Assembly (NCBI GenBank): GCA_900553845.1
Contig: USEW01000001.1
Span: 1-45,349 of the forward strand
Direction of reading: 5' to 3'
From: an uncultured bacterium
Lineage (GTDB): Bacteria > Cyanobacteriota > Vampirovibrionia > Gastranaerophilales > Gastranaerophilaceae
DNA length: 45,349 bases
The notes below the pieces were generated by a model. That model was not told where the DNA came from. It made no database searches and saw only the letters and a program-made list of their open reading frames with translations. A program made the position numbers and the translations under genes. Below, one piece after another: positions 22,027 to 41,698 of the stretch (position 1 is its first letter; every line of letters begins with the position of its first letter).

Positions 22027-22245
22027 CTATTTTGCAATTAACATTTCATCTATACTTTTATCAACAATTTTAGCAAGCTTTACAGCATTACATAATGAAA
22101 TATTGTGTTTTGCATTTTCAACATTGCTAATATATGAAATACTAAAACCAGTTTTAAATGCAACATCTTCTTGTGATAGTTTTAGCCTAAGTCTCTCGAT
22201 CTTGAAATTAAATCCAAAAGTTTGTAATAATTCTATATCGTTCAT
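22027..22245 (-). CDS. XRE-family helix-turn-helix transcriptional regulator
   Basis: 72 aa. The segment LRLKLSQEDVAFKTGFSISYISNVENAKHNISL matches the HTH_3 pattern. Confidence 0.8.
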   Translation of the reverse strand: MNDIELLQTFGFNFKIERLRLKLSQEDVAFKTGFSISYISNVENAKHNISLCNAVKLAKIVDKSIDEMLIAK

Positions 22246-22366: not shown

Positions 22367-22950
22367 AAATGGTGGAAAGAATGCGTCTTATATCGAACCA
22401 TACATACGGACACTGAAAGAACAGTTGGCTAGCGAATGCAGTACAAAACTGATATATATGTTGAACCAGTGGGCATTAAGGAAAGCTGCTTAAATTCACT
22501 TTCTAATATCTATTGTTCAGCAAACACATGCACCACAACTACACCACACACAACAAAAACACTTTATTAGCACAACCCCAAAATCATATCATGTCAGTTT
22601 GGTGAATAAACACATCATTTGTTATTTTTTGACTGTATGCTTTCCGCTGGTACTGTGCTGGTGATACAGTGCGTAGCGGAGCGTAGCACGAGCGTTAGCG
22701 AGCTTGCTGTATCCCGAATGCAGAAGTCCGAGCTGAAAAGGGAAAAGTACGGAAACATAAATGAAAACAGAAATAATAAATGCAATTCTAAAAGCAGCTC
22801 CCAGAGCGGGGTAGAAACAATTTTACCTTTTTATGGTTAAAAGTTATACCATGCAAACAGTAAAAACCTGGTCAAGGCAGCGTGAGTGGCCTCTCGTGGA
22901 ATGTTTAATATAATCTACTGATGTAATTTTTATGCTATAATTAACGCAAG

Positions 22951-25560
22951 ATGATGGAAGTATGTACAATGCTCACTAACAAATATCAGGCAGTAGCAGA
23001 AACAACACGATTACAGGCTCTCGTGAATGATAAAAACTTCCTTCCTATTTATGCCTCATCCAATGTGAAAATATACCCTTATCAGATAGCCTCAGCTAGG
23101 TTTGCTCTACGCTCTGATTATCTAAAAGGTTGTATATTATGTGATGAAGGCTCTCTCGGTAAAACTTACGAGGCTCTTTTGATTGCTGGGCAAAAGTGGT
23201 ATGAAGGCAAAGAGAATATTCTTGTATTAATGCCTTCAAACTAATTCCTCAATGGTTGGGAAAATTAAGCAAAGACTTTACTCTTCCTCATATCTTTTGG
23301 AATAATACCCCTCAAATACCTGAGGATGAAGGGATTATTATAACTACTTATGACTTTGCTCTCAAATACTCTGACCGTATCAAAGAGCGAGTTTGGGACA
23401 TGGTAATTTTTGATGAGGCAGATTGCTTATCAAAACCTGATAAGCAGATGACGCAGACCCTTAAAGACTCCGTAAGAGAGGCGTATAAACTTCTCTTAAC
23501 ACCGACACCTATTACAATGGATATAAGGGATGTTTACGGACTTATACATTTCATAGATGAGAGTGTACTACCTGACCCTGACGAGTTTTATAAGAGGTAT
23601 TTTCGTAAACCTGAAAACTACCCTGAACTCACAAGCTGGGTTTCTCAGTTTTGTTTCAGAACCCTGAAAGCACAGGCATGCGACTATGTCTCATTTTCTA
23701 ATAGGATACCTTTACGGTGGATTATCCTCTTCTTAAAGAAGAAAAAGAACTCTATACCCTTCTTCATACCTACATAAAAACGGATGATAAGGTGGCTTAT
23801 GAAATGGATGAGTATAACCTTGCTCTAATGCTTTTCAATAAGTTATCTTCATCTCCTCAGGCATTTACTAAAATGTTACAGCCCGCTATACAAAGAACTT
23901 ATGGAGTGGAGAAAGCCGTTTTGCAAAAGATTTATGACTTAGCCTCTAATATTCAAATAAACTCTAAGACTTTGAGTCTGATTAAAATACTTAAGCAGGT
24001 ATTTAAACACCTGAAACAATGCAAGGTTAACGAGAAAGCTATTGTATTTGTAACAAGTAATATTACTCTTGAAGTTCTATATGACATCTTAAGGCGAGAA
24101 GGCTATAACATCCTCAAATACAAGGACAACGATACGCTGGAACAATTCAGAAATGATGATGAGGTGCAGATTCTTGTTACAACCGACTCCTCCGCTAAAG
24201 GGCTGGACATTGAGTATTGCCCTGTAGTTGTAAACTATGACCTCTTATATAATTCGATTGAAATGTAGCAGAGGATATGCCGTTGCCATAGACAAGAACA
24301 AAAGTCTGATGTACTTGTTATCAATATGTTAAGCAAAGAAACCTTGCTGATGTTCGCATGCTGGAACTTATTAACAAGCGTACTCTTCAATTCAACGGCA
24401 TTTTTGGGATGTCTGATGATATTGTAGGCAATTTTGACTTGAAACTCAAAGAAGTCCTGACTCAATTTAGACCAGCCCAAGAGGTGGCAGAGTCTTTTAA
24501 ACAGAACCTTGAAACACACAAGACAGCTAATACAGAGCTTGTGGAGAATGCTGAGAATTTATTGTTTACTACTTTTACAAAGTCAATAGCTGAACAGGTA
24601 ACTGTAACCCCTAAATATATTGAAGAAGAGACAGAAAAACTTAACTCTGAATTGTGGGAGCTGGTAAAATACTATTTTCTATATGAAAAACCTGATTGTT
24701 ACGAGATAAACGATAGCGATAGAACCCTCAAACTTATTGAAAGCTATAGACCGTATCTCTTTAGTTATAAGGATGATAGACTAACAAGACAAAAAAGTTA
24801 TGAGGGATATTCTGAATACGGTATGAGTCCTGATTTTCGACCAAGTTTTAAGCGGATAACCTTCACTTCATTACTCGTAAAAGGTATATTGAAAGAGCTT
24901 GACGCTATTGATACCTCTGAGGCGATTTTGTATGTTGATTCTGATATTGAGCCATGCTAGATTGGATTGTATAATTATTCCATAACAACGAGTAAAGCAG
25001 ACTCAAATAAACTATTCCAACACCTTCTAATCGGGCAGACGCAAACAGGGAAACACCTTTCTGATAAAGATTGTAGGGAACTTTTGTCTCTTCCTGTTGC
25101 TAAAATTGAAGAGCCTGAAAGGTTTTCTCGTTTCAAACTCTTTGAAGATTTTGAAACCGCTGGGAACTTAGATGATAAGGTAATTAAAGAGGATATTTTA
25201 AGAGATTATATTAAGAGTAAGGAAGGCTCGATTGCTTATGAAGTCGAGAGAATTAAATTAGAGGCAGGGCGAAAGAAGTCTAAAATGGAAATTGACCTCA
25301 ACGATTTAAGGACAGAGATTAAAGAGCTGAATAAAAAGCTTTCTGATAAGATGACTGACCGACTTGAAGAGTTGAAGATTACGAAAAGACTAAGATTGAT
25401 TGAGAAGGAACTGAAACAGAAGGAAGAGAGCCTCTTCTTTTCTAAGGCAGAAGTGGATGTTGAAACAGAGAAGAAGGTTGAAGAACTTACAAACTCGTAC
25501 AACTTTGAGGTGCTTACTTCTTGCAAGTTTAAATTAAGATTGCTTAAACAACAGGCATAA
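22951..25560 (+). pseudogene. SNF2-family (SF2) helicase, disrupted by three -1 frameshifts and two in-frame TAG codons
   Basis: Motif I DEGSLGKT, motif II FDEAD, motif III LTPTP and a degraded motif VI QRICRCHRQEQ. Reading frame changes near 23240, 23715 and 24340. TAG at 24266 and 24958. Confidence 0.8.
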
Positions 25561-25604
25561 AACACATTTTCATGGTACAATCGCATTAATAAAAGGGGAT
25601 ATAT

Positions 25605-27438
25605 ATGATAGAAGATATAGCTAGAGTATCAGGTCAAAGTATGGATATTGAAGGGGCAGAGAAAGAGAAGTTAAGGTCTGTTTTTCCTCAATGTTTCAAT
25701 GAAGGAAAGCTGGATATAGACAAGCTTTTAAACCTTTGCGGTGAGTATATTGATGAAGATTTTGAGAAGTATAAGTTTGAGTGGAAGGGCAAAGCTGAGT
25801 GTCATAGGATAGCAGGTAAACGCTCAACTGGTACACTTAGACCATGCCCTGATGAAAGTGTGAACTTTGATACAACAAAGAATATGTATATTGAAGGAGA
25901 TAATCTCGAAGTCTTGAAACTCTTGCAGACATCTTACTATCGTAAAGTTAAGATGATGTATATTGACCCTCCGTACAATACAGGTAACGACTTTGTGTAT
26001 GAAGACAACTTTGCAGACCCAATGGCGAAGTATAAAGAAGTAACCCAGCAGACAACCAAGTCAAACCATGAGACAATGGGAAGATACCATACAAACTGGC
26101 TTAATATGATGTACCCAAGACTCCGACTTGCCTCTAACCTCTTGAGGGATGACGGGGTGATTTTTATCTCGATTGATGATAATGAAGTAACAAACCTCAG
26201 AAAACTTTGTGATGAAGTTTTTGGAGAGGAGAACTTTCTTGCTCAAATAATATGGAAAAAAAGAGGTGGTCCTCCTAATGATAAAATTCTAGGTGCTATT
26301 CATGAATACATAATTGCTTATGCAAAGGATATGCAGAAATTAACCATCTATAGAAAAGAACGAACAGGAAAACAATTAGACAGATACAGAAATCCTGACA
26401 ATCATCCGAAAGGCAAATGGGCTGCTGATAATTTAATGGCGAATGTTAAAGGTGGTCGTTATGTTTCATCATTGTACTATCCAATTATAAATCCAGTTAC
26501 TGGTGAAGAACATTATCCGTCATCAAATGGAAACTGGAGATACAACAAAGAAAAAATGCAACAATTATTGGATAACAACGAGATATATTTCGGTGAAGAT
26601 GGCAAGGGTAGACCAAAACTTAAAAGATTTTTGTGTGATGTTCAAGATGGAGTTCCTTTTGCAACATTATTTGATTATCTACCTCATAATAACAAAGCTA
26701 CTGCAGAACTTGCCGAGTTCATAGGAAGTGTTAATATATTTGACACTCCCAAGCCTAGTGATTTAATCAAAGAATTAGTTAAGATGAGTTCTGCAGGAGA
26801 TGATATAGTTCTAGACTTCTTCTCAGGCTCTGCAACCACAGCTCATGCAGTAATGCAGTTAAACGCAGAAGACGGTGGAAACAGGCAATTCATCATGGTA
26901 CAACTCCCTGAGGTTTGTGATGAAAAGTCGGAGGCATTCAAAGCTGGCTACAAGAATATTTGTGAAATAGGCAAGGAACGCATACGCAGAGCAGGAACAA
27001 AAATTGCCAAAGGTGATACAGGGTTTAAGGTATTCAAACTCGACACTTCAAACCTTGTTAAGTGGGAGTCAACACCGACCTCTGACCTTGATTTGATTGC
27101 GGATAGAATGAACTTGCTTAAAGACACAATTAAACCCGACCGTAACGACTTAGACATGGTTTATGAAACAATGCTCAAAATGGGAATACCTCTTGATTAC
27201 AGCGTAACAGAAGTATCAGTTAATGATAAGAGCTTACTCAATAGGAGATGATTGCCTTGTGCTTGTTTGCCTAGACTACGGCAAAGACGGAATAACCCCT
27301 GAGGATATTAAAACAATATGTGATGACTTCACACCTGCTAAGATTATTGCCTCAGAGAGAGCATTCAAGGATGATGTATCACTCTCAAATGCTTACTATA
27401 TACTAAAAGACAGACATATTGAAATGAAACTGTTATAA
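25605..27438 (+). pseudogene. mod: Type III R-M Mod-like DNA methyltransferase (beta-class N6A/N4C), C-terminal frameshift
   Basis: Carries DPPYNTGNDF (motif IV) and DFFSGSATTAHA (motif I). The frame shifts around 27222-27252, and the tail continues as AYSIGDDCLVLVCLD... Confidence 0.8.
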
Positions 27439-27450
27439 AGGAGATAAGTA

Positions 27451-28356
27451 TTGACTAACAGCTTTGAACTACTTAGAAATAAATACATATTAGATATTCT
27501 TGATGGGGATAAATTATTTGAGACACAAGGAGATATTAGAATTGCTATGCCATATTTGAGTGGACCTGATTTATGCGGTTTATCAACAAGATTTGGTTAT
27601 CCTAGCCAGTACAAATGGGGGAGTGGTAATCCTAGTCGCTGGTCATATTTAGATAGCACAATATCTTTCTGTATTGAAAATAATTCTATTGACAAACTTC
27701 TAAGCTTTATGTTTAGCAAAGAGAATTTTAAGCAAGCATTGAGAAATGTCAATGTGGATAAAATAGATTACTACCATGAGTATATATGTACTAAAGCAAT
27801 TACAGAAATAAACAAGATTCTTTATTTTTCGGATAAACAACTGGTAAAAACAAACAATAACTTCTACATCAAAGAAATAGGTCAAGAAGTAACAATCGAA
27901 ACACCTGCTCTGAAAGTAATTGATAGAGAGTATATAAAAGGCTTATGTGAAAGAGCCAGCAAAGACATTGATGAGAATAATTTTGATAGTGCAATTACCA
28001 AGTTTAGAACCCTAATAGAAGAAGTGTTTTGTTATGCCATTGAAAAGGCTGGAGAGACTCCTTCTGATAGTGGGGATATTCAAAAGCTTTATAATCAAGT
28101 TAAAGACCTATATAATATGCACTCTAACAAGGATATGGATAAGAGGATAAATAATCTTCTATCAGGGTTAAACAAGATAATATCTTCTATCGCAGAGATG
28201 AGAAACGGAAATAGTGATTCTCATGGAGTTGGTAGTAAACGCATAAATATAATAGAAGAACATCATGCAAGATTGATATTGAACTCAGCGTCAACAATAG
28301 CAGAGTTCTTTCTTGCAGTTGTAAATAGGAAACAAGCTCAACTGGTAACAGTTTGA
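27451..28356 (+). CDS. abortive-infection protein with an Abi_C-type C-terminal domain (intact)
   Basis: TTG start 7 nt after an AAGGAG SD that overlaps the mod stop. The C-terminus FDSAITKFRTLIEEVF...IAEMRNGNSDSHG...HARLILNSASTIAEF resembles the Abi_C (AbiJ-like) domain. Confidence 0.6.
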   Translation: MTNSFELLRNKYILDILDGDKLFETQGDIRIAMPYLSGPDLCGLSTRFGYPSQYKWGSGNPSRWSYLDSTISFCIENNSIDKLLSFMFSKENFKQALRNVNVDKIDYYHEYICTKAITEINKILYFSDKQLVKTNNNFYIKEIGQEVTIETPALKVIDREYIKGLCERASKDIDENNFDSAITKFRTLIEEVFCYAIEKAGETPSDSGDIQKLYNQVKDLYNMHSNKDMDKRINNLLSGLNKIISSIAEMRNGNSDSHGVGSKRINIIEEHHARLILNSASTIAEFFLAVVNRKQAQLVTV

Positions 28357-28416
28357 CACCAGATAATAGGGTGGCGACAATTTGTTCCCCACCTAAAACA
28401 AACAAGGAGTAAATAA

Positions 28417-29282
28417 ATGGCTAGTGACAAAGTAAGAATAGATGTGCAAGGTGAAAGTATTGCAATATTAAAGGTTAACGATGATGATTATATCTCATTA
28501 ACAGATATGGTGAAAGGTTTTGAAGGTCAAGGTGCTTTAATTGAACAGTGGCTAAGAAACAAGGATACACTTCTATTCTTGGGAACTTGGGAAACTTTAT
28601 ATAATGAGAATTTTAATTCCCTCGAATTCGAGGGAATTAAAAATGAGGCTGGTAGAAACAGTTTCTATATGTCTGTTAAAAAGTGGATTGAATTAACTAA
28701 TGCTAAGGTATAATATCTCAAGCTGGTAGATATGGGGGAACTTTTGCTCATAAAGACATAGCCTTTGAATTTGGCTCATGGCTTAGTCCTGAATTTAAAC
28801 TATATCTCATTAAAGAATTCCAACGATTAAAGTTAGAAGAAAATGAAAGAAAGTCTCTTGATTGGAATCTGAATAGAACTCTTTCAAAGATTAACTACAG
28901 AATCCATACAGATTCTATTAAAGAAAACCTAATTCCTCACAAATTAACCAAGAAAGAACAAAACGGTACATACGCAAGTGAGGCAGATGTTCTTAATATT
29001 GCTTTGTTTGGCAAGACTGCTAAACAATGGAGAGAACAAAATCCTGATGTAAAGGGAAATATTAGAGATTATGCCACGATTGAACAACTTCTTGTATTGG
29101 CTAATATTGAAAGTTTCAATGCTGAGCTTATCAGACAAAATATACCACAAGGAGAACAATTAAAAGTATTAAATGATATGGCTATAAGTCAATTAAAATC
29201 ACTGTTGGCTAGTAATGTAGCTAAGAAATTAACAGTTAAAGGAAATATACCTTTAATAGAATACAAAGAAGATAAAAACTAG
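28417..29282 (+). pseudogene. KilA-N domain protein, one -1 frameshift near 28705-28715
   Basis: The N-terminal ORF ends ...ELTNAKV*. The next frame continues GIISQAGRYGGTFAHKDIAFEFGSWLSPEFKLYLIKEFQRLK, a KilA-N hallmark. Confidence 0.7.
28611..28642. repeat. 32-bp perfect palindrome TTTTAATTCCCTCGAATTCGAGGGAATTAAAA (copy 1, inside kilA-N)
   Basis: Read directly from the sequence. It is centred on GAATTC, and a second copy lies at 29389-29418. Confidence 0.9.
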
Positions 29283-29388
29283 TTGTACGCTCAAATCGTA
29301 CAACTCAACCGGTTACAAAGAGTAACCGGTTGACTACAAATTGAAGTCAACCGAATTGTACGAAATAGTCGTACACTTGAAGAGGAAA

Positions 29389-29418
29389 TTTAATTCTCTC
29401 GAATTCGAGGGAATTAAA
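29389..29418. repeat. second copy of the palindrome (one arm mismatch), 24 nt upstream of the res start
   Basis: Reads TTTAATTCTCTCGAATTCGAGGGAATTAAA. Flanking bases are also shared with copy 1, giving ~38 bp of similarity. Confidence 0.9.
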
Positions 29419-29441
29419 AAAAAGACAAAGGACAGGACTAA

Positions 29442-32400
29442 GTGAAATTAAAGTTTAAACATCAAGATTTTCAAACAGAGGTGGTAAATGCAGTAGCAGA
29501 CCTATTCACAGGGCAAGAAAAGTCCAGTATGACCTTCTCGATTGACGAGAATGCAGGACAAATGCGGTTACTTCAAAATGAGTTTGGGTTCGGCAACAAG
29601 CTTATGATTGATGATGAAACACTTATCTCTAACATGCATACTGTTCAGAGACGCCACAAACTTCCTATCAGTAGAGACTTTGATTCAAAGCAATACTCTA
29701 TCGAAATGGAGACAGGCACAGGTAAGACCTATGTCTATACAAAAACTATTCTTGAACTCAATAAGAAATACGGTTTCACTAAGTTTATTATTGTTGTACC
29801 TTCTATCGCAATCAGAGAAGGGGTCTTTAAGTCTTTGCAAGTTACAGAGGAACACTTTAAAAACCTTTATGACTCAGTACCTTATCGTTACTTTATTTAC
29901 AACTCCTCCCAGCTCTCAGATGTTAGAACTTTTGCTACATCAAATAACATTGAGATAATGATTATCAACATTGACGCATTTAAGAAGGCTGAAAATATCA
30001 TTAACCAGGAGCAAGACAAGCTCAACGGTGAAACCGCAATGAGGTACATACAAGACACTAATCCTATTGTAATTATAGATGAACCTCAATCTGTAGATAA
30101 CACTCCAAAAGCAAAAGAGGCGATACAGTCTCTTAATCCGTTATGTATACTCCGCTATAGTGCAACACATAGAGAAAAGATTAACATTCTTTACCGTCTG
30201 ACTCCTGTTGACGCTTATCAAATGGGACTTGTAAAACAGATTTGTGTGTCATCAAACTCTGTAGCTAACGACTTCAACAAACCTTACATCTACTTGAAAT
30301 CTGTATCAAATGAAAATGGATTCTCAGCTAAGATTGAAATTGATATTCAGGGCAAGGACGGCAAGGTGGAAAGAACCACAAAGACAGTTAAAGCTGGAGA
30401 TGATTTATATGTGTTATCAGGCAATCGTGAACTTTATCAGGACTATGTTATTGAAGGGATTGACTGTACAAAAGGTTTTGAATGTATTGAGTTTTCTAAC
30501 TCTGATATTGTTAAACTGGGTAAAGCTATCGGAAGTATTGACGAAAACATCATGAAGAAAGCTCAGATTTACAGAACTATTGAGGCTCATCTTGATAAAG
30601 AACTCAGATACTATGATAAAGGGATTAAAGTCTTGTCTCTGTTTTTCATTGATGAAGTAAAAAAATACCATACAGAGACAGGGGAGAAGGGAATATATGC
30701 TGAAATGTTTGAAGAGTGCTACAGGGAACTCATCAACAAACCAAAATATGCAGAGTTGAAAGACAAGTTCAATCCTGATGTAGAAAAAGCTCATAACGGT
30801 TACTTCTCACAGAATAAAAAAGGTATTTATAAGAACACAAAAGGCGATACACAGGCAGATGATGATACTTACAACACAATTATGAAGGATAAAGAGTATC
30901 TGCTTTCTTTTGATTGCCCTATGCGTTTTATTTTCTCGCATTCAGCGTTAAAAGAGGGCTGGGATAATCCAAATGTATTCCAAGTTTGTACTCTGATAGA
31001 CCAAAAGTCCACATTCACATGCAGACAAAAAGTCGGCAGAGGTCTGAGGTTGTGTGTAAACCAAGACGGTGAAAGAATAGAAGACAGAAACATTAACATC
31101 CTTCATGTTATGGCTAATGAGAGTTTTGCAGAGTTTGCTGAGAAGTTGCAGAAAGAGATTGAAGATGAAACAGGCATGAAGTTCGGAACTCTTCAACTGA
31201 GTGCTTTAATGGACTTGACATACGAGGAAAAAACTGAGATAGAACATACCATGAACGAGTCGGACGCTTTTGATGTGTTTGAAACTCTTATACAGAATGA
31301 TGTTATTGATTTTGACGGAACAGTAAAAGACGAGGGTAGGAGTAAATTAGAAGAACTGGAAGATTTTAAAATTGCAGAACCTCTTAAACAAGAGGTTAAG
31401 AAAATGGTGCAAGAGTCAAAACCATTGACCTTTGAAACTTTAAAAGAGGTTAAATGTGTTGAGACGGTTATTGAAGAGAAAACAATCTCGCATGAACAGG
31501 CTAGTGAGATTATGGAAGATCTTAAGGAGTTTAAAGTTGTTGCAAAAGACGGTAAGATTAAGGATACAATGAAGGCACAACTTGCCTCAGGCAAACTCGA
31601 CTTAATCCAGCGTTGGGGACAGGCGAAGACTAGGGCGATTGTCCAGGCATTAGAAAAAGCAGACAACCGACCAGTAATAAGAGACGCCTCAAAAGAAGTT
31701 ACGGTTAGATTAAAGTAACAGACTATTGTTTCACCTGAGTTCAGGGAGTTATGGGACAAAATTAAACAGAAAACCACTTACAGAGTAAATTTTGATATAG
31801 AAGAGTTAGTTAAAAAATGTGTTAAAGAACTACAGGACATGGACTCAATCCCTAGAGCAAGACTTGTTTCTAAAGTAGCTGATATTGAGATTGAAAACGC
31901 TGGAATTACGCACAGCGAAAAACACATTAAGACTCAGAACTTAACAGAGACTTTTGAGAGTATACCTGATATAATACGGTTAATCTCAACAGAGACCTTG
32001 CTTAAACGCTCTACGGTAGTTAGAATAATACTAGAGAGCGGAAGACTGCAGGACTTTGTTAATAACCCTCAGGGATTTTATGAGAAGGCTCTTGAAATCA
32101 TAGCCCGCAACAGGCATTCTATGGCGATTGACGGCATTAAGTATGTGAAATTAGCAGGTGAAGAGTATTATGTTCAGAAGATTTTTGACTCGGCTGAACT
32201 TATTGCCAACCTTGATAAAAACGCTGTATCAGTTAATCATAGCGTATATGACTACTTAATTTACGATAGTGGAGTTGAAAGCAGATTTGCAGAGAGTCTC
32301 GATAATGACCCTGATGTAAAAATGTTCTTTAAAATACCTTCAAGGTTTAAGATTGAGACACCAATAGGCTCATATAATCCTGATTGGGCTGTATTTATGG

Positions 32401-32582
32401 AGAAAAATGGAGAACAGAAACTATATTTTGTACTGGAATCTAAAGGCACTAATACATTATTTGACCTCAGAAGTCCTGAACAGCTCAAAATTCATTGTGG
32501 GAAACAACACTTTGACGCTCTTGATGTTACATTCCCTGCTGAACCAGTTAAGGACTGGAAAGAGTTTAAAGCGACTGTATAA
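29442..32582 (+). pseudogene. res: Type III restriction enzyme Res subunit, interrupted by one in-frame TAA (31716-31718)
   Basis: GTG start. Helicase motifs METGTGKTYVY, IIDEPQS, RYSATH and the SHSALKEGWDNPNVFQ/GRGLR block. The C-terminal PD-(D/E)xK-like segment NPDW...VLESKG lies in the same frame after the stop. Confidence 0.85.
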
Positions 32583-32897: not shown

Positions 32898-33480
32898 TTA
32901 TTTGTAGAATGTACTTTTTGCAATATTGCACATCGACATAACATCTTTAACTTTAATCAATCCATTTTGATAAAGTTCATAAGTCCTTAAAAAATCCTTT
33001 GGCAATTCTGCGGTAGGTCTGCCAAACTTAACCCCCTCTTGATTTTGCCGAAGCGATTCCCTCTGCCTGTCTTGTTTTAATATTATCTCTTTCACGCTCG
33101 GCAACATAACTAAGTAATTTTAAAACAATATCTGTAATTAAACTTCCCGTAAGTCCATTTTGATTGTTTCGAGTGTTTAAAATCGGCATATCAAGGACTT
33201 GAATATCTACTCCCATATTTACAAGGCTTTCCCATTCGCTACAAATTTGTTTGTAATTCCTGCCTAATCTATCTATGCTTTTTACAATCAACAGGTCGCC
33301 ATTCCTTAATTGTGCCTTCATCTGCTGATATTTTTCACGACCGACAAAGTTTTTTCCAGAAGCTTTTTCAACTATGATTTCATCAACCTTCAAGCCGTTG
33401 AGGCTGTCTATTTGTCTATCTTCTTTTTGTTCACGTGCTGAAACTCTTATATATGCAAAGGTTTTAGCCATGATTAACAT
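32898..33480 (-). pseudogene. small serine recombinase (resolvase/invertase), +1 frameshift in a G5 run
   Basis: N-terminal AYIRVSAREQ (catalytic Ser) with the resolvase core. The C-terminal HTH (KFGRPTAELPKDF...) is in another frame. The junction sits at the C5/G5 run 33032-33036. Confidence 0.8.
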
Positions 33481-34166: not shown

Positions 34167-34421
34167 ATGAACGAAAACGAAAAAGAACTTAAAGCGAAAG
34201 AGCTTGATGAGCAAGCAACAGAACTATTGAAAAGAAAAGTTAAGGCGATGATAGTAGAAAAAGGCTACACTATGGAAAAATTAGCAGATGACCTTAATGA
34301 AAAATATTATACAAAGGAAAGCAAAGCCAATTTATCAAACAAACTTAAAAGAGGTTCGTTGAGATACATAGACATGCAAAGAATAGTCGATGTTTTAGGG
34401 TATACTATCGAAATTCGATAA
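34167..34421 (+). CDS. putative small DNA-binding (HTH-like) regulator
   Basis: 84 aa, divergent from the 34006 gene across a 160-bp control region. The segment GYTMEKLADDLNEKYYTKESKANLSNKLKRGSL resembles an HTH. Assignment is weak. Confidence 0.4.
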   Translation: MNENEKELKAKELDEQATELLKRKVKAMIVEKGYTMEKLADDLNEKYYTKESKANLSNKLKRGSLRYIDMQRIVDVLGYTIEIR

Positions 34422-34574: not shown

Positions 34575-35657
34575 ATGGCAGAGTTTAAACCGATTTTTTC
34601 TATAACTAACACTATAGCAAATAACCTTCTTGAAATAGAAAGAGTAAAAGAAGGCATTAAAACCCTGCCTATTAACCCTACTTTATTAGCATCGCTTAGA
34701 GAAACAGCGAAACTTCAAACAATTCACTATTCTACCCAAATTGAAGGTAACAGGCTAACGCAAGATGAAGTAAAAGAGCTTATAAGCAAGAAAAAAGTTG
34801 TTTCAAATACTGGCAGAATAAGAGATGAAAAAGAAATTAAAGGCTACTACACAGCTCTTGATTATATAGAAAAACTTGCAAAAACAAATGTTCAGATAAC
34901 AGAAGAAAACATTAAGTATATTCACGCACTTGTAGTCGGGGGTGGAAGTTCAAAAGTTAAACCTTCTGAATATAGGGAAGGACAGAATGTTATAACAGAT
35001 TCCTTATCGGGTAACATCGTTTATATGCCTCCAGAGGCTAAAGATTTAGCAGATTTAATGAAAGAATTTGTTAGTTGGATAAACTCCCCTAATGACATTC
35101 CTATCCCTATTGTTGCAAGTATTATTCATTATCAGTTTGTAACTAATCACCCATATTTTGATGGCAATGGCAGAACTGCAAGACTTCTTACAACACTTGC
35201 ATTGCACAAAGGTGGTTATGATTTAAAAGGGATTTATTCACTTGAAGAATATTACGCAAAAGACCTGCAAGGGTATTACGAAGCGATAACTATTGGTAAT
35301 TCCCATAATTACTATTTAGGCAGGGCTGAGTCTGACATTACAAAGTGGATTGAATACTTTATCAACGGTATGTCGATTGCTTTTAAATCTGTTTACAGCA
35401 GGGCAAAAGAACAAGAAAGTTCTAAAGATGGTATTAAGGTTTTAAGAGAACTTGATACAAAGCAAAGACAGATTCTTAACCTGTTTGAAACTCAAAAATT
35501 TGTTACTACTAAAGATGTTGCAGAGTTCTTTAAGTTTTCCCCACGCAGTGCAAGACTTCTCGTGTTAGAATGGGTAAATACAGGATTTTTACTTGCAATA
35601 GGCGAAGGGAAGAAAAGAAAGTATCAGCTTAATGAAAAATATGAGAAAATATTGTAG
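34575..35657 (+). CDS. Fic-family protein (class II type with an N-terminal inhibitory motif and a C-terminal winged helix)
   Basis: Active-site motif HPYFDGNGRTAR. The N-terminal YSTQIEGN matches the (S/T)xxxE(G/N) inhibitory helix. 360 aa. Confidence 0.85.
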   Translation: MAEFKPIFSITNTIANNLLEIERVKEGIKTLPINPTLLASLRETAKLQTIHYSTQIEGNRLTQDEVKELISKKKVVSNTGRIRDEKEIKGYYTALDYIEKLAKTNVQITEENIKYIHALVVGGGSSKVKPSEYREGQNVITDSLSGNIVYMPPEAKDLADLMKEFVSWINSPNDIPIPIVASIIHYQFVTNHPYFDGNGRTARLLTTLALHKGGYDLKGIYSLEEYYAKDLQGYYEAITIGNSHNYYLGRAESDITKWIEYFINGMSIAFKSVYSRAKEQESSKDGIKVLRELDTKQRQILNLFETQKFVTTKDVAEFFKFSPRSARLLVLEWVNTGFLLAIGEGKKRKYQLNEKYEKIL

Positions 35658-36440: not shown

Positions 36441-37496
36441 TTAATTTGCCAATTTGTCTGATTTGCTAATACTATTTTTTATACATTTTAAATAGTGTTC
36501 ATTAAAATCTTTGCAACCACATTCCAGTTTATAGTGAACACAAAAAGGATATCTTTGCATTATTGTTTCAGCTGTTGTATTTCCCGCCTCATCATTATCA
36601 ATAAATAGATAACATTTTTTGTATTTTGAAAATTCGACTTCTTGAATATACTTTAGCAGACTATTCACACCATTACTTGGAGTTACAATATGATAAAATT
36701 CAATTTGATTTTGTTCTGTTAAGTATTGATAAAGAGCATATCCATCCATGTAACCCTCAACTATCGCCAAAATTTCTGTTTTTGATGTATAGCAATTTAC
36801 CATAGCCATTGATGTAGGCGTTCCTTTACTTCTGCTAATTTGTTTTTTTGTTAGGTTGCTATCACGGAATTCGAAACCAGTTATTGTGCATTCAGCAGAA
36901 TTAGCACTATATTTGAATGTTGGCATTACCCACTTATGAGTTTTTAAATCTATTCCGATACCACAATTTTCAACTGTATTCTTATTAAATCCTCTATGTT
37001 TCTCGATATACTTTAAAGCTTTATCATGTCTTAATAATTCTTCATTACATTTAGCCATATAAAGCAATAATTCTTCTTGCTTTTCTTGTGTAAATATGTC
37101 AATTTGATTATCAGATTTAGGTCTGATTATACATTTATTATTGTATTTTGCAGAATTAATATTACTAAAACTAACAGTTTTACTATTTTTATCTTTAGCG
37201 TATATCTCCTTTAAAATTCGCTGAGAATGCTCACCATTACTTGCAAAACAATAAAGAATACCTTTTTTAGGATTGAATTTGAGATTATCCCTATGCTTAT
37301 CTTGACAATAAGGACATTGCCAAATGTATTCTCCACCAATTTGTTTTTCAGCATATCCTAGATATGCCTCTATTTTATCCAATGTTAATTTTTCAAATTC
37401 CATGTAATACCTTTCTTTTAATACCTTGTGCCATTTTGGGTAAAACGGCAAATTAAAGCGCAGTCGTACTTTATTAAGTTCTCCAGGTTGGCACAT
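36441..37496 (-). CDS. DnaG-like primase (CHC2-type zinc finger plus Toprim domain)
   Basis: Carries CPYCQDKHRDNL...YCF (zinc finger) plus IVEGYMDG and FIDNDEAG (Toprim E and DxD). An alternative start at ATG 37403 has a better SD. Confidence 0.7.
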   Translation of the reverse strand: MCQPGELNKVRLRFNLPFYPKWHKVLKERYYMEFEKLTLDKIEAYLGYAEKQIGGEYIWQCPYCQDKHRDNLKFNPKKGILYCFASNGEHSQRILKEIYAKDKNSKTVSFSNINSAKYNNKCIIRPKSDNQIDIFTQEKQEELLLYMAKCNEELLRHDKALKYIEKHRGFNKNTVENCGIGIDLKTHKWVMPTFKYSANSAECTITGFEFRDSNLTKKQISRSKGTPTSMAMVNCYTSKTEILAIVEGYMDGYALYQYLTEQNQIEFYHIVTPSNGVNSLLKYIQEVEFSKYKKCYLFIDNDEAGNTTAETIMQRYPFCVHYKLECGCKDFNEHYLKCIKNSISKSDKLAN

Positions 37497-37503
37497 TACT
37501 ACC

Positions 37504-38946
37504 CTAGATAATGTCTTCTAAAAGTTTAACGCCTATACTAACATCGCCTGTAGGCATCTGTGATAAAGAATACTTAACACCTTTTGGCTTTGATTCTTTT
37601 ACATTAAGAAGAAAACCTTTTTCAGAAGCGATATCATTAACATATTTAATGATTTCCTCAAAATTTTTATCAAACATTTTTCTACTGCAACCGAAAGCAT
37701 TGTAGTGTGTACGTTTTAAATCTGTTATAGTAAATTCTTCATCCAGATGTTCTTTAAAGAAATCAAAAACACGTTCATACAAATCCTTGTACGCAGGTTT
37801 AAGTTTGATAAATTCCTTGAAATTACTACCTAGAAAATTTACAACACTAATAGCTTGTTCCATATCTAGAGGACTTATAACATGGTTAGCAGGATGATTT
37901 AAAACTGCAAATAGACAAGATAATTTTAGAGCCTTCAACTCTCTCGATTTTAACTCTCTCGCAAGCAAAGTATTTTCTTCATTGTTGACAAGCTCATTAA
38001 GTGATATCTTGTATGTATGAAAGACTTGTTTAAATGTTTCGTCCAACAACTCAAATACACTGTTTGAATTAACATTTAAAAATGTCGAGAAAAAACTATT
38101 ACCTAATTCATCTGCTTTTCGAGCAAAATTTTTGGATTGCTCTAAAGCTTTATCAACATCTTCTTCTATAGTCAATTTTGTTTTTGGCATATAAATGATA
38201 GTTGCCCTACGCCCAAATCCCATTTGCATTAAGCTATCAAACATTCCTTTTAATTCACTTGCAAACAATGTTGGGTCAGAATACAACAAAATATTACAAG
38301 GAATATTACTCAATTCATCTTCTCGATTTTCAGTTTTGATACATTTGCTACTAAGTTTACCATCATATAACTCAAAGATAGACTGAAAACATTGTTGGTC
38401 TTCTACCTTAGAATTTTTTAGCATTAAACCAAATTCGCCCATTTTAATCATTAAAGAGCCAAAATCCACACCTATTAATGCTTTTGCATCACAAAATATC
38501 CCCTCTGGTGTTGCTTTGTTAATTTCAAGTGTTATATTTCTGATACAAGAAGAATCTTTTTTTACTAGAGTTTCAATCTGTTTTTTATCGCTTACATTCG
38601 CCAGTTGTTCTTCATAACATCGTCTGATTTCTTCTGTTTTTTGTAACTTATAATCTTCTGCCTTATTTTTAATCCATAATCGACAATTTTTAAATATATA
38701 GTTATCCATTTCGTCTGACATTTTGTCCTTGCCATATCCACTTGGCTCAAAATTGATTGCATAATAATTTGGATAGCCTTGCTTTCCAAATTCTGAATAA
38801 TGTACTCTTTTAGCTGTAATCATTTGAGCCATTTTAGCCAATGCAACATTTAATATTATTGCATCTGAATGACTAGGATATCTCTCCTTAAATAATACTA
38901 GGATTTGATTTAATATTTTGGGGGTTTGAAAAGTATTGCTCATCAT
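37504..38946 (-). CDS. hypothetical replication-associated protein (DUF3987-like guess)
   Basis: 480-aa intact ORF immediately upstream of the primase, an arrangement typical of island/phage pri-rep modules. The domain assignment is tentative. Confidence 0.35.
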   Translation of the reverse strand: MMSNTFQTPKILNQILVLFKERYPSHSDAIILNVALAKMAQMITAKRVHYSEFGKQGYPNYYAINFEPSGYGKDKMSDEMDNYIFKNCRLWIKNKAEDYKLQKTEEIRRCYEEQLANVSDKKQIETLVKKDSSCIRNITLEINKATPEGIFCDAKALIGVDFGSLMIKMGEFGLMLKNSKVEDQQCFQSIFELYDGKLSSKCIKTENREDELSNIPCNILLYSDPTLFASELKGMFDSLMQMGFGRRATIIYMPKTKLTIEEDVDKALEQSKNFARKADELGNSFFSTFLNVNSNSVFELLDETFKQVFHTYKISLNELVNNEENTLLARELKSRELKALKLSCLFAVLNHPANHVISPLDMEQAISVVNFLGSNFKEFIKLKPAYKDLYERVFDFFKEHLDEEFTITDLKRTHYNAFGCSRKMFDKNFEEIIKYVNDIASEKGFLLNVKESKPKGVKYSLSQMPTGDVSIGVKLLEDII

Positions 38947-39022
38947 GTTATCTCCTTCTGTTTTTTATTTTTAGTCTAACCTTTAGAGATATATGATTCA
39001 CTAACTTTAGTCATAACTTTAG

Positions 39023-39979
39023 TTATGACTTCAATTTAAAATGTGGTAGTTGAAACCCTTGTTTTTCAAGCATTCTTATCGCACCATCTAAGGATTCTAC
39101 AAGCAGTTTGTTTTTAATATTTAAAACTTTTTGTTTAATATTGTTTTCTGTGAGTTTTGGGGTAAGTATTTTGCCTATTTCTTTGTATGTTCCCTTCTTT
39201 CCAGCAGTTAACAATGCTGATTTTGCACCAATAATATTAATTTCTTCTTTTGTCAATTTATATTTATTGGTAATAGAATTTCTATTATCTGCTTCTATTG
39301 CAGTTTGGGATTGTTGACTTGCTATATTTTTTCTGATTACTTTAGCCTTAAAAAGACACTTTAAATCCAAAATATCTAACGTTGTATTAATATCAAGATA
39401 TGGGTCTTGCAAAATATCGTATTCTTCATCAACATCTTCTACATACACACTTGTATAAATTGATTCATTTCCTACAATCCCTTTGGGATATTCTGCTACA
39501 CAAATATTAGTAATATTCAAACATTCTGGCTTAAATAAGTGAAGTGAAAGCAAAACATCAAAATACTTTGTTCCTAAAATTGTATATGATTTAGTGATTC
39601 TTGTTCTATCGATAGATTTGATAAATGATTTTAACTTTGATTTATAGTTTTTGGGATTGTTTCTATTGTATCTGTATTGGTATTCAAGGTTATTTTTAAT
39701 AAGATTTTTTATATATTCTTTTAGCCAGATTTCAGCATTTTTCTTGTTCCTACGTTTAATTGAAATATTTATGTACAATGAGTCTGCCACTATCTTTAAA
39801 AAAGGAAATGCATCAGACAACTCATTGCAATATAGCTTGAGTTGATACTTGTCGATGTTGAAGCTGCTGATAAGAAACTTGATTTCTTTTTCATTATTCC
39901 AGTATAAAAGTTTTGCAATTATAGCCAAATTTGTATTATTAACATAATATGTTGTTTCTGCGACAGTTCTTTTTACCAC
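39023..39979 (-). CDS. LuxR/GerE-type HTH regulator with an unknown N-terminal domain
   Basis: The C-terminus LTKEEINIIGAKSALLTAGKKGTYKEIGKILTPKLTENNIKQKVLNIKNKL fits the GerE HTH pattern. Confidence 0.55.
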   Translation of the reverse strand: MVKRTVAETTYYVNNTNLAIIAKLLYWNNEKEIKFLISSFNIDKYQLKLYCNELSDAFPFLKIVADSLYINISIKRRNKKNAEIWLKEYIKNLIKNNLEYQYRYNRNNPKNYKSKLKSFIKSIDRTRITKSYTILGTKYFDVLLSLHLFKPECLNITNICVAEYPKGIVGNESIYTSVYVEDVDEEYDILQDPYLDINTTLDILDLKCLFKAKVIRKNIASQQSQTAIEADNRNSITNKYKLTKEEINIIGAKSALLTAGKKGTYKEIGKILTPKLTENNIKQKVLNIKNKLLVESLDGAIRMLEKQGFQLPHFKLKS

Positions 39980-40062
39980 GATTTCATACCTATTATTTTG
40001 CTTATTATACTACAAAAGAAATGTTTGTTTGCTTCTTCTGAATTTTGTGGTATCGTTGACGC

Positions 40063-41679
40063 ATGAAAAAAGCTGTATTATATGCAAGAGTATCAAGCAA
40101 TAGACAGGAAAAAGAGGGTTTTTCTATTCCTGCCCAAATTAAGTTATTAAAGGACTATACCTTTCAAAACAATATTCAAATTGTAGAAGAATTTGTTGAA
40201 GCTGAAACTGCTAAGAAATCAGGCAGAAAAAAGTTTAATGAGATGGTTAGCTATCTTCATGAACACGAAGATAGAAGAATTATACTTGTTGAAAAGGTGG
40301 ATAGATTGTATAGAAATCTACCAGATTATGGCACAATAGACAATATTAAAGGTCTTGAAATTCATTTTGTTAAAGAAAATGAAATACTGTCTGAAAACTC
40401 CCGTTCAAGTATCAAATTTATGATAGGGATACGTGTTCTAATGGCAAAACAATACGTTGATAACCTTGCAGAAGAATCTGCAAAAGGTTTGAATGAACGT
40501 ATTGAACAAGGATATGCACTGTATCCGCCGTTAGGTTATATGTATGGCAATGACGGTACACACAAACATGCTATTATCAAAGACCCTGAACGTGCCGAGT
40601 ATGCTGTTAAAGCGTTTAATTTATTTGTTTATGAAAATCTATCAGCTTCTTCTATAAATAATATTCTGTATGAGGAAGGTTTAAGGAATCCAGACGGAAA
40701 TAAATATGCAGTTTCAACCATACAGAGAATGTTCAAAAATCCAATGTATGTTGGGGATTATATATATCAAGGAAAGTTATATCCAAATGGTAAACACGAA
40801 CCGTTAATAAGCAGAAAGTTATTCCAACTTGCACAGGAAAAACTAAATAATGCTAACAATACAACAAGACAATATGATGTAGAATTTCCTTACATAGGTC
40901 TGTTTAAATGTAGCGTTTGTGGTTGTAGTTATATAGCAGAAAGAAAAGTTAAACCAAGTGGTAAAGAATATATTTATTATCATTGTACAGGCAAAGGTAA
41001 GATTAAAACTTGTAAAAAAACTTCCTACATAAACGAAAGTAAAATTGATAAGTTTATTATAGAAATTCTTAAAAATTTAGAGAATTTACCTCAATCACTT
41101 ATAAATGAAATCAAAGATTGCTTGAAAGAAATTTATGACCTTAAAAATGAATACAGTAATATAACCCAAGATAACATATATAAGCGTATTAAAGAAATTG
41201 ACCGAATGATACAGAACGGCTATAAACACATGCTTAGAAGTAACAATGACATGGAAAATGAGCTGTGAAATGCAACTTATACAGAATTAAGAGCTGAAAG
41301 AGAACAGCTTATGGATAAACTGTCTTGTATTGATAAAGCTGATGATGATTTTTACAAGCAATCTGATTTAATATTGAAGTTCTGTAAGAATGCAAGCAGA
41401 ATTTTCATGGAAGCAACTCCATCAGAAAAAAGAACAATTTGTGAAATAATTGGTTCGAACTTTACAGCAAATGGCAAAAATATAGATATAACGCTGTATC
41501 CTATCTTCTATGACATAATAGAGATGAATCGTCTAGGTCATTCTCAAAATGGAAGGTTCGAACTCTCTAAAACTCAATCAGACACGAAAAAAGAGCCTCT
41601 AGTGAAGGCTCTTAATTTAAATGGCGGGAACGACGAGGCTCGAACTCGCGACCTCTTGCGTGACAGGCAAGCGCTCTAA
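40063..41679 (+). pseudogene. large serine recombinase (island integrase), in-frame TGA at 41266-41268
   Basis: Carries AVLYARVSSNRQ (catalytic Ser), the recombinase domain and a zinc ribbon CSVCGC...YYHCTG. The C-terminal domain continues in the same frame after the TGA. The last ~90 nt of the ORF merely read across the tRNA-Asp terminator and gene. Confidence 0.8.
41586..41613 (-). terminator. rho-independent terminator of tRNA-Asp
   Basis: Stem AAGAGCCT/AGGCTCTT (41591-41598 with 41606-41613). On the minus strand it is followed by TTTTTT, 8 nt after the tRNA CCA end. Confidence 0.75.
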
Positions 41680-41698
41680 CCAACTGAGCTACGCTCCC
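41622..41698 (-). tRNA. tRNA-Asp (anticodon GTC), CCA encoded
   Basis: A 77-nt cloverleaf folded by hand: acceptor GGGAGCG/CGTTCCC, D-arm GCTC-AGTTGGTTA-GAGC, anticodon stem CTTGC/GCAAG with loop CTGTCAC, T-arm GCGAG-TTCGAGC-CTCGT, discriminator G. Confidence 0.9.

Follow-up and report, generated by a model that had tools for sequence, protein, structure and literature searches.

A block of five genes at positions 22951-32582 (+ strand) of a 45,349-nucleotide stretch of DNA from an uncultured Gastranaerophilaceae bacterium (contig USEW01000001.1, assembly GCA_900553845.1; the whole stretch analysed is referred to as the window) is probably a mutationally inactivated three-gene operon, made up of a DrmD-like Snf2 ATPase and the Mod and Res subunits of a Type III restriction-modification (R-M) system, which lies on an integrative island and has a slot between mod and res that takes accessory genes. 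Type III R-M is usually regarded as a two-gene system. The locus is a decayed member of an under-described SNF2-linked Type III R-M variant and not a new five-gene system. An initial annotation made from the sequence alone had described five co-directional defence genes, and their positions and identities were confirmed by gene calls that combined the open reading frame (ORF) listing with three-frame analysis and by Pfam, PADLOC and NCBIfam profile searches. In order these are an SNF2 ATPase pseudogene in five fragments (22951-25560), a Type III mod pseudogene (25605-27438), an intact AbiJ-family gene (27451-28356), a KilA-N pseudogene (28417-29282) and, after a 159-bp spacer (29283-29441), a Type III res pseudogene of 1046 codons (29442-32582), all on the + strand. 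Matches to the MTase_III and REase_III profiles bear out the claim of a defence locus founded on Type III R-M, and AbiJ and KilA-N are indeed the extra, abortive-infection-type genes said to be wedged between mod and res. The locus had been called partly decayed, which was right in kind and underrated the extent, as four of the five genes are pseudogenes with eight lesions between them.

The three-gene core was apparent from a survey of one genome per species, in which 80 loci from several phyla were found from SNF2 and the window proteins were mapped onto them by tblastn. The loci came from Gastranaerophilales, gut Alphaproteobacteria, Clostridia, Desulfovibrionaceae and others, with SNF2 homologues 38-87% identical. 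With the adjacency count limited to the 43 loci in which SNF2 is flanked on each side by 7.5 kb or more, Mod and Res were both found beside the SNF2 homologue in 42. The order was SNF2-Mod-Res in 35 loci, Mod-Res-SNF2 in 19, mostly from Alphaproteobacteria and with a res-SNF2 gap of 13-30 bp, and divergent in two. Adjacency thus survives permutation of the order across phyla, which is the signature of a functional unit. Identity to the window was also strongly correlated between SNF2 and Res (Spearman 0.94); the correlation was lower for Mod (0.74), a consequence of the exchange of its central target-recognition region, which affects even close relatives. On this comparative evidence the conserved core of the predicted system is SNF2, Mod and Res. 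One search with an E-value limit of 1e-20 returned more than 6,900 proteins, a count that takes in more distant Snf2 helicases too. It could be argued that the SNF2 gene merely neighbours mod and res in a defence island and is functionally independent of them, as it has its own promoter-like site and the helicase of the E. coli system EcoR22I was dispensable for the phenotypes tested. The near-constant adjacency in any order, the short gaps and the SNF2-Res correlation make this improbable.

The accessory genes behave quite differently from the core. The initial annotation had put forward the five genes as an architecture that might recur, to be checked by co-occurrence in homologous loci; the core passed such a check and AbiJ and KilA-N did not, so that among the 80 species-representative loci only SNF2, Mod and Res stay together. 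In 10 of 55 species loci the mod stop lies 10-18 bp from the res start and the slot is empty. Occupied slots hold one to three ORFs, all co-directional, which form 29 BLASTP clusters, about half of them without a Pfam match. The commonest occupant is Bro-N (PADLOC PDC-S13; 13 loci), and other matches are to RhuM (PDC-S05), KilA-N (PDC-S22), AbiJ, YaaC, 23S_rRNA_IVP, DUF6602, GIY-YIG/T5orf172 and Mrr_cat. On contigs of the closest relatives the arrangement is SNF2-Mod-X-Res, with either a 266-aa protein or YaaC in position X. AbiJ was found in one other locus (L013, as Mod-AbiJ-BroN-Res) and KilA-N in three (L045, L056 and L060), and the two together occupied no slot outside the window's lineage among the 55 loci. 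The co-directional genes and tight or overlapping junctions of the window are what would be expected if all five were a single integrated, co-evolved five-component defence system, but with this pair combined in no other slot, ten slots empty and the rest filled by 29 unrelated families, that explanation is highly unlikely. The mod-res junction is, as far as comparative sequence can tell, a swap-slot for accessory genes, and AbiJ and KilA-N are two of at least 29 interchangeable families of occupant. A RhuM gene between SNF2 and mod on a Monoglobus plasmid, together with nine loci with long SNF2-mod gaps, points to a second, rarer slot between those genes.

The AbiJ gene encodes 301 aa with an Abi_C/HEPN domain and shows each of the features by which the family is recognised: similarity over its full length (PADLOC AbiJ 3.5e-85, over residues 3-295), a C-terminal Abi_C/HEPN domain (Pfam Abi_C 68.5 bits against a cut-off of 24) and an Rx4-6H motif, in this case the Rx6H HEPN motif RNGNSDSH at residue 251. 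Its Shine-Dalgarno sequence (TTATAAAGGAGATAAGTATTG) is overlapped by the mod stop, as the initial annotation had noticed. The homologue in L013, which occupies the same slot, is 67% identical. The KilA-N pseudogene (about 288 aa; PADLOC candidate PDC-S22) has homologues of about 50% identity in the three loci named above. Downstream of it the spacer consists of recombination debris with several hairpins. A 36-nt palindrome occurs twice with 94% identity, at 28608-28643 inside KilA-N and at 29385-29420, 22 nt upstream of the res start; no such repeat is expected by chance, and among 96 loci the palindrome was found only in this lineage. The last ~27 nt of the spacer (29415-29441) read KKDKGQD*, matching the 3' end of Bro-N/PDC-S13 genes such as those that precede res in L036, L017 and L013. 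This Bro-N scar suggests that a KilA-N cassette replaced a Bro-N cassette, and the spacer features are best read as scars of cassette replacement by recombination.

The nature of the occupants raises an alternative, namely that KilA-N, Bro-N, RhuM and T5orf172/GIY-YIG genes are phage-derived selfish or regulatory hitch-hikers in a permissive, well-expressed site. For the KilA-N (PDC-S22) and Bro-N (PDC-S13) proteins PHROG contains full-length homologues with the annotation transcriptional regulator or anti-repressor, GIY-YIG and T5orf172 domains are among the occupants, the PADLOC PDC families are candidates, and the spacer carries recombination scars. Yet bona fide defence genes (AbiJ and an Mrr-type nuclease) also use the slot, and every occupant runs in the same direction as mod and is closely coupled to it. 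Moreover, the embedding study of Payne et al. (bioRxiv 10.1101/2024.01.29.577857) confirmed an anti-phage effect for seven candidates embedded in other systems. As an account of the slot genes the hitch-hiker explanation is therefore rather unlikely; for the KilA-N, Bro-N and RhuM occupants a phage-derived regulatory or selfish origin is a serious rival.

The first gene of the core was described as an SNF2 helicase of about 870 codons when reconstructed, with a long coiled-coil tail, and both statements hold. Read-through gives 867 codons, and an intact 871-aa homologue that is 95% identical (P0001) has a helical hairpin at residues 759-848 in its AlphaFold model. The model, with a predicted local distance difference test (pLDDT) score of 75, comprises two RecA-like lobes, a beta-rich domain, the ~90-residue hairpin and a terminal strand. 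The read-through sequence retrieves hundreds of intact proteins of ~870 aa, the closest from Gastranaerophilales gut bacteria. Two RecA-like lobes and Snf2-type domains (Pfam SNF2-rel_dom and Helicase_C) place it in the Snf2 family, although the window copy itself is broken, and Walker A, DExx and motif VI are invariant across 29 SNF2 homologues. Its best PADLOC model is DrmD PDLC02619 (293 bits) and its best NCBIfam model is DISARM_DrmD_b, at 285 bits against a cut-off of 950, so that the window protein is by profile a relative of DrmD and not an equivalog. PDB profile matches include 1z63, RapA and CHD1L. Foldseek with the P0001 model placed RapA at the top, in an alignment covering almost the whole protein, and chromatin remodellers next; when the C-terminal 315 residues were modelled by themselves (pLDDT 83), they had no significant PDB counterpart beyond a weak match to RapA (E 6.6e-3). 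Residues 28-842 also align with PHROG 62, which comprises very large helicase proteins of phages.

Just before SNF2 begins, at 22933-22941 (+ strand), there is a promoter-like extended -10 (TGCTATAAT), a consensus match only, which is also kept in L001 and in L002-L012. Similarity of the window to related loci starts at about 22929. In close relatives three extra co-directional genes lie immediately 5' of SNF2 (L001 198-3237; L003 7176-9902), encoding a ~60-aa ribbon-helix-helix protein and two larger proteins (442-480 and 363-369 aa). Pfam, NCBIfam and PADLOC gave no match for any of the three, and all are missing from the window. About 700 bp upstream of SNF2 a divergent gene (22027-22245, - strand) encodes a 72-aa HTH_3 protein, which could be a controller protein; small helix-turn-helix (HTH) genes likewise precede SNF2 in the Monoglobus plasmid and in E. 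coli loci.

In Type III systems generally, Mod and Res form a complex that adds methyl groups to one strand of an asymmetric site and cleaves DNA lacking the modification, the cleavage being ATP-dependent and needing two inversely oriented sites. The window Mod matches PADLOC MTase_III (7.2e-198) and Pfam N6_N4_Mtase (1.5e-38), and its translation contains the motifs YIDPPYN and DFFSGS, that is the DPPY and FxGxG signature of a Type III N6-adenine methyltransferase, despite a frameshift at the 3' end. Between close relatives (the window, L001, L003 and L013) the termini of Mod are nearly identical while the central ~190 residues cannot be aligned, which is the pattern expected if target-recognition domains are swapped. 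Res is a fusion of a superfamily 2 helicase and a C-terminal PD-(D/E)xK nuclease beside mod, as in other Type III systems, though with a stop at codon 759 (PADLOC REase_III 7.4e-226 for the N-terminal part and 3e-50 for the C-terminal part; Pfam ResIII and RE_endonuc). With NCBIfam PRK15483 the score of an intact relative is 351 bits, below the cut-off of 564. The ribosome-binding region of res (ACAAAGGA) is retained regardless of the cargo of the slot.

Lesions were defined by alignment to the 94%-identical intact locus L001 and to other relatives. SNF2 has three 1-bp deletions (at about 23241, 23713 and 24340) and two GAG>TAG stops (24266-24268 and 24958-24960), and beside these five disruptions the invariant Gly of motif VI has become Glu at about 24296. 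In mod the last ~65 codons are out of frame owing to a 2-bp deletion near 27231, KilA-N has a 1-bp deletion near 28706, and in res an AAA>TAA stop at 31716-31718 parts the helicase from the nuclease domain. AbiJ is the sole intact gene. The authenticity of the lesions was judged from identical independent assemblies (only one read run contained 9% of the words). Five metagenome records, each from a different sample, carry the entire block with 100% identity, although one of these may be the window's own source, so that the lesions are taken as real and assembly error as unlikely. None of the eight falls in a long repeat tract, which makes phase variation unlikely as well. An alternative code (TGA=Trp) was rejected as the cause of the fragmentation by the presence of TAA, TAG and TGA stops and of frame shifts. 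In host-adapted bacteria phase variation is common among Type III mod genes, and the locus might accordingly be thought still functional, with phase-variable switches, programmed recoding or assembly errors behind the disruptions. Three in-frame stops and eight lesions in four genes, outside repeat tracts and reproduced in identical records, leave that hardly credible. Restriction in this lineage is probably dead, and of the genes in the block only AbiJ could still work. Its intactness may be due to chance, as a 0.9-kb gene would escape eight lesions in about 8.7 kb with a probability of about 40%. The practical message of the window is one of annotation: these are to be labelled as pseudogenes, and this restriction barrier is gone from the lineage.

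For the intact relatives a working scheme can be proposed. The Snf2 ATPase, whose ATPase motifs do not vary across the family, would be a double-stranded DNA translocase working with the Mod-Res complex; it might load Mod-Res, clear the DNA or back up the complex. Single accessory genes would recombine into the mod-res junction, where they would be co-transcribed and translationally coupled to mod, and a second layer, such as an abortive-infection effector of the AbiJ HEPN RNase type, could thereby be expressed together with restriction. A bolder form of this proposal is possible, though we hold it only tentatively: that the DrmD-like Snf2 is an obligate third component and defines a distinct class of Type III systems that spans phyla, a Type III/DISARM hybrid in which Res takes the place of DrmABC and the junction is a dedicated coupled slot that swaps abortive-infection effectors as a backup layer.

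Several points weigh against the interpretation of the block as an inactivated Snf2-Mod-Res operon with an accessory slot. A contribution of Snf2 to restriction is a prediction, and in EcoR22I mod and res sufficed without it for the phenotypes tested. The survey of adjacency ran outward from the SNF2 genes. For KilA-N, Bro-N and RhuM the evidence of a role in defence is their status as PADLOC candidates, and they have phage regulator and anti-repressor homologues. Co-transcription and translational coupling are likewise read from the arrangement of the genes. Finally, the EcoR22I helicase is a possible rather than an established member of this SNF2 subfamily.

The value of the locus lies in the SNF2-linked family rather than in the dead copy in the window. 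By the SNF2-seeded survey a large subfamily of Snf2 ATPases is almost never without Mod and Res beside it, an association noted once in the literature searched, for EcoR22I. The role of the motor could extend the mechanisms of both Type III R-M and DISARM, for example through loading, the clearing of DNA-bound inhibitors or the sensing of anti-restriction proteins. The slot, in turn, yields a short catalogue of candidate accessory defence genes, at least 29 of them, from gut bacteria that have been little studied.

To the left of the block are the housekeeping genes glyQ, a YitT-family gene, trpS and a DMT_6-family gene. On the right are a truncated serine resolvase (33028-33480, - strand), DUF6471 (34167-34421, + strand), an intact Fic-domain protein (34575-35657, + strand; PADLOC SoFic 1.2e-54), a region with Toprim, DUF3987 and a 401-aa large serine recombinase (36441-41268), and tRNA-Asp (41622-41698, - strand). 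Because the SoFic-type Fic protein is intact, the island holds at least one more defence gene 3' of the dead R-M system. The region from the resolvase to tRNA-Asp resembles an integrative element with the defence block as its cargo, and parts of this right flank recur beside res in relatives; direct or attachment-site repeats linking the left edge to tRNA-Asp were looked for and none was found. A plasmid or phage origin was considered and rejected, as megablast against plasmids gave only distant matches to KilA-N and only three SNF2 relatives were found among 2.9 million viral contigs.

The initial annotation recognised no named system in the block. The triad and the embedding of genes each have a precedent. 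The precedent for the triad is EcoR22I of E. coli ECOR22, a Type III R-M system with an associated drmD-like SNF2 helicase (Silas et al., bioRxiv 10.1101/2023.04.06.535777). In that study mod and res by themselves were enough for restriction and for the cell death triggered by Ocr, and every transposon insertion that suppressed toxicity was in one of these two genes. EcoR22I resembles the window in having mod and res beside a drmD-like SNF2 gene on a mobile-element hotspot, and a long Res (over 1040 aa; 1046 codons in the window) with a C-terminal PD-(D/E)xK nuclease. It differs in that no embedded genes were reported for it; a second difference is that the window copy is an array of pseudogenes. 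Conservation of a drmD-like SNF2 beside Type III mod and res is what the 42 of 43 loci display.

A DNA search of E. coli genomes with the Bilophila SNF2 gave no match, and the Bilophila Res query had matches in 170 of the 5426 complete E. coli genomes. The two E. coli chromosomes inspected (L090 2494-11760; L091 2466-11745) both carry, in order, an HTH gene, an SNF2-like helicase, DUF4391, Mod and Res. The helicase is of 1088 aa, matches PADLOC 'HKD+Snf2' C3a139 (2e-132) and has about 25% identity in the core. The literature searched yielded nothing useful on genes between mod and res, on DUF4391 or on COG co-occurrence. On the E. coli plasmid pEC316_2 (L089 8652-18404) an HTH gene is grouped with genes for an SNF2-related protein of 987 aa, a DNA methyltransferase of 1046 aa and a DEAD/DEAH helicase-family protein of 1120 aa. 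Such triads of SNF2, methylase and helicase, with an SNF2 core about 27% identical, occur on many conjugative plasmids of Klebsiella and Salmonella.

Canonical Type III systems such as EcoP15I and EcoP1I share with the window a Mod with DPPY and FxGxG motifs, a helicase-nuclease Res, the order mod then res and, to judge from the gene junctions, translational coupling. They differ from the window family in having no conserved third gene for a Snf2 ATPase, and the mod-res junction is occupied in 45 of the 55 relatives examined here.

DISARM and BREX had been set aside because their hallmark genes are absent, and no protein in the block has DrmA, DrmB or DrmC, or a BREX hallmark protein, as its best PADLOC match. 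For BREX, there were no PADLOC hits to PglZ, PglX/BrxX or BrxC in the block and a weak hit of BrxHI/BrxHII to the C-lobe of SNF2. The link to DISARM is closer than had been allowed, since the SNF2 is DrmD-like. Class 1 DISARM (drmD-drmMI-drmA-drmB-drmC) resembles the window in having an SNF2-like helicase directly 5' of an N6-adenine methylase, a pairing that might suggest that the block is a degenerate Class 1 DISARM that has lost drmA, drmB and drmC. However, DISARM requires DrmABC, and in place of DrmA, DrmB (DUF1998) and DrmC (PLD) the window has Res as its helicase-nuclease, as do 42 of the 43 well-flanked loci. Apart from a weak DrmA hit to the C-lobe of SNF2 there was no sign of these proteins in the block (relatives were not scanned for them). 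The methylase is a Type III Mod (PF01555) and DrmMI is of pfam13659, and the NCBIfam DrmD score is far below the cut-off. Degenerate DISARM is thus a very improbable explanation, and the block is better placed with the SNF2-linked Type III systems.

Genes nested in R-M operons are familiar from the PrrC/Rlo genes of Type I loci. In the window family too the nested genes vary among homologous hosts, with some slots empty and the others filled from many clusters. The closest parallel is guilt-by-embedding: in the part of the work considered here, Payne et al. (bioRxiv 10.1101/2024.01.29.577857) described genes embedded in Hma, BREX, DISARM and Type I R-M, from which the PDC families were derived. 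In both cases variable accessory genes are nested in a multi-gene defence system, and the PDC-S22, PDC-S13 and PDC-S05 families were matched here. Type III is not among the hosts named in that part of the work, and in this case the host is a Type III operon with its slot at the mod-res junction. The window AbiJ resembles that of Lactococcus in its full-length match to the PADLOC AbiJ profile, its Abi_C domain and its Rx6H HEPN motif, and differs in being embedded in the R-M operon of a gut bacterium; lactococcal AbiJ is itself without a known mechanism (PMC13064643). What has a precedent is therefore the triad, in EcoR22I, and the embedding of defence genes; what the window and its relatives represent is an under-described variant of Type III R-M.

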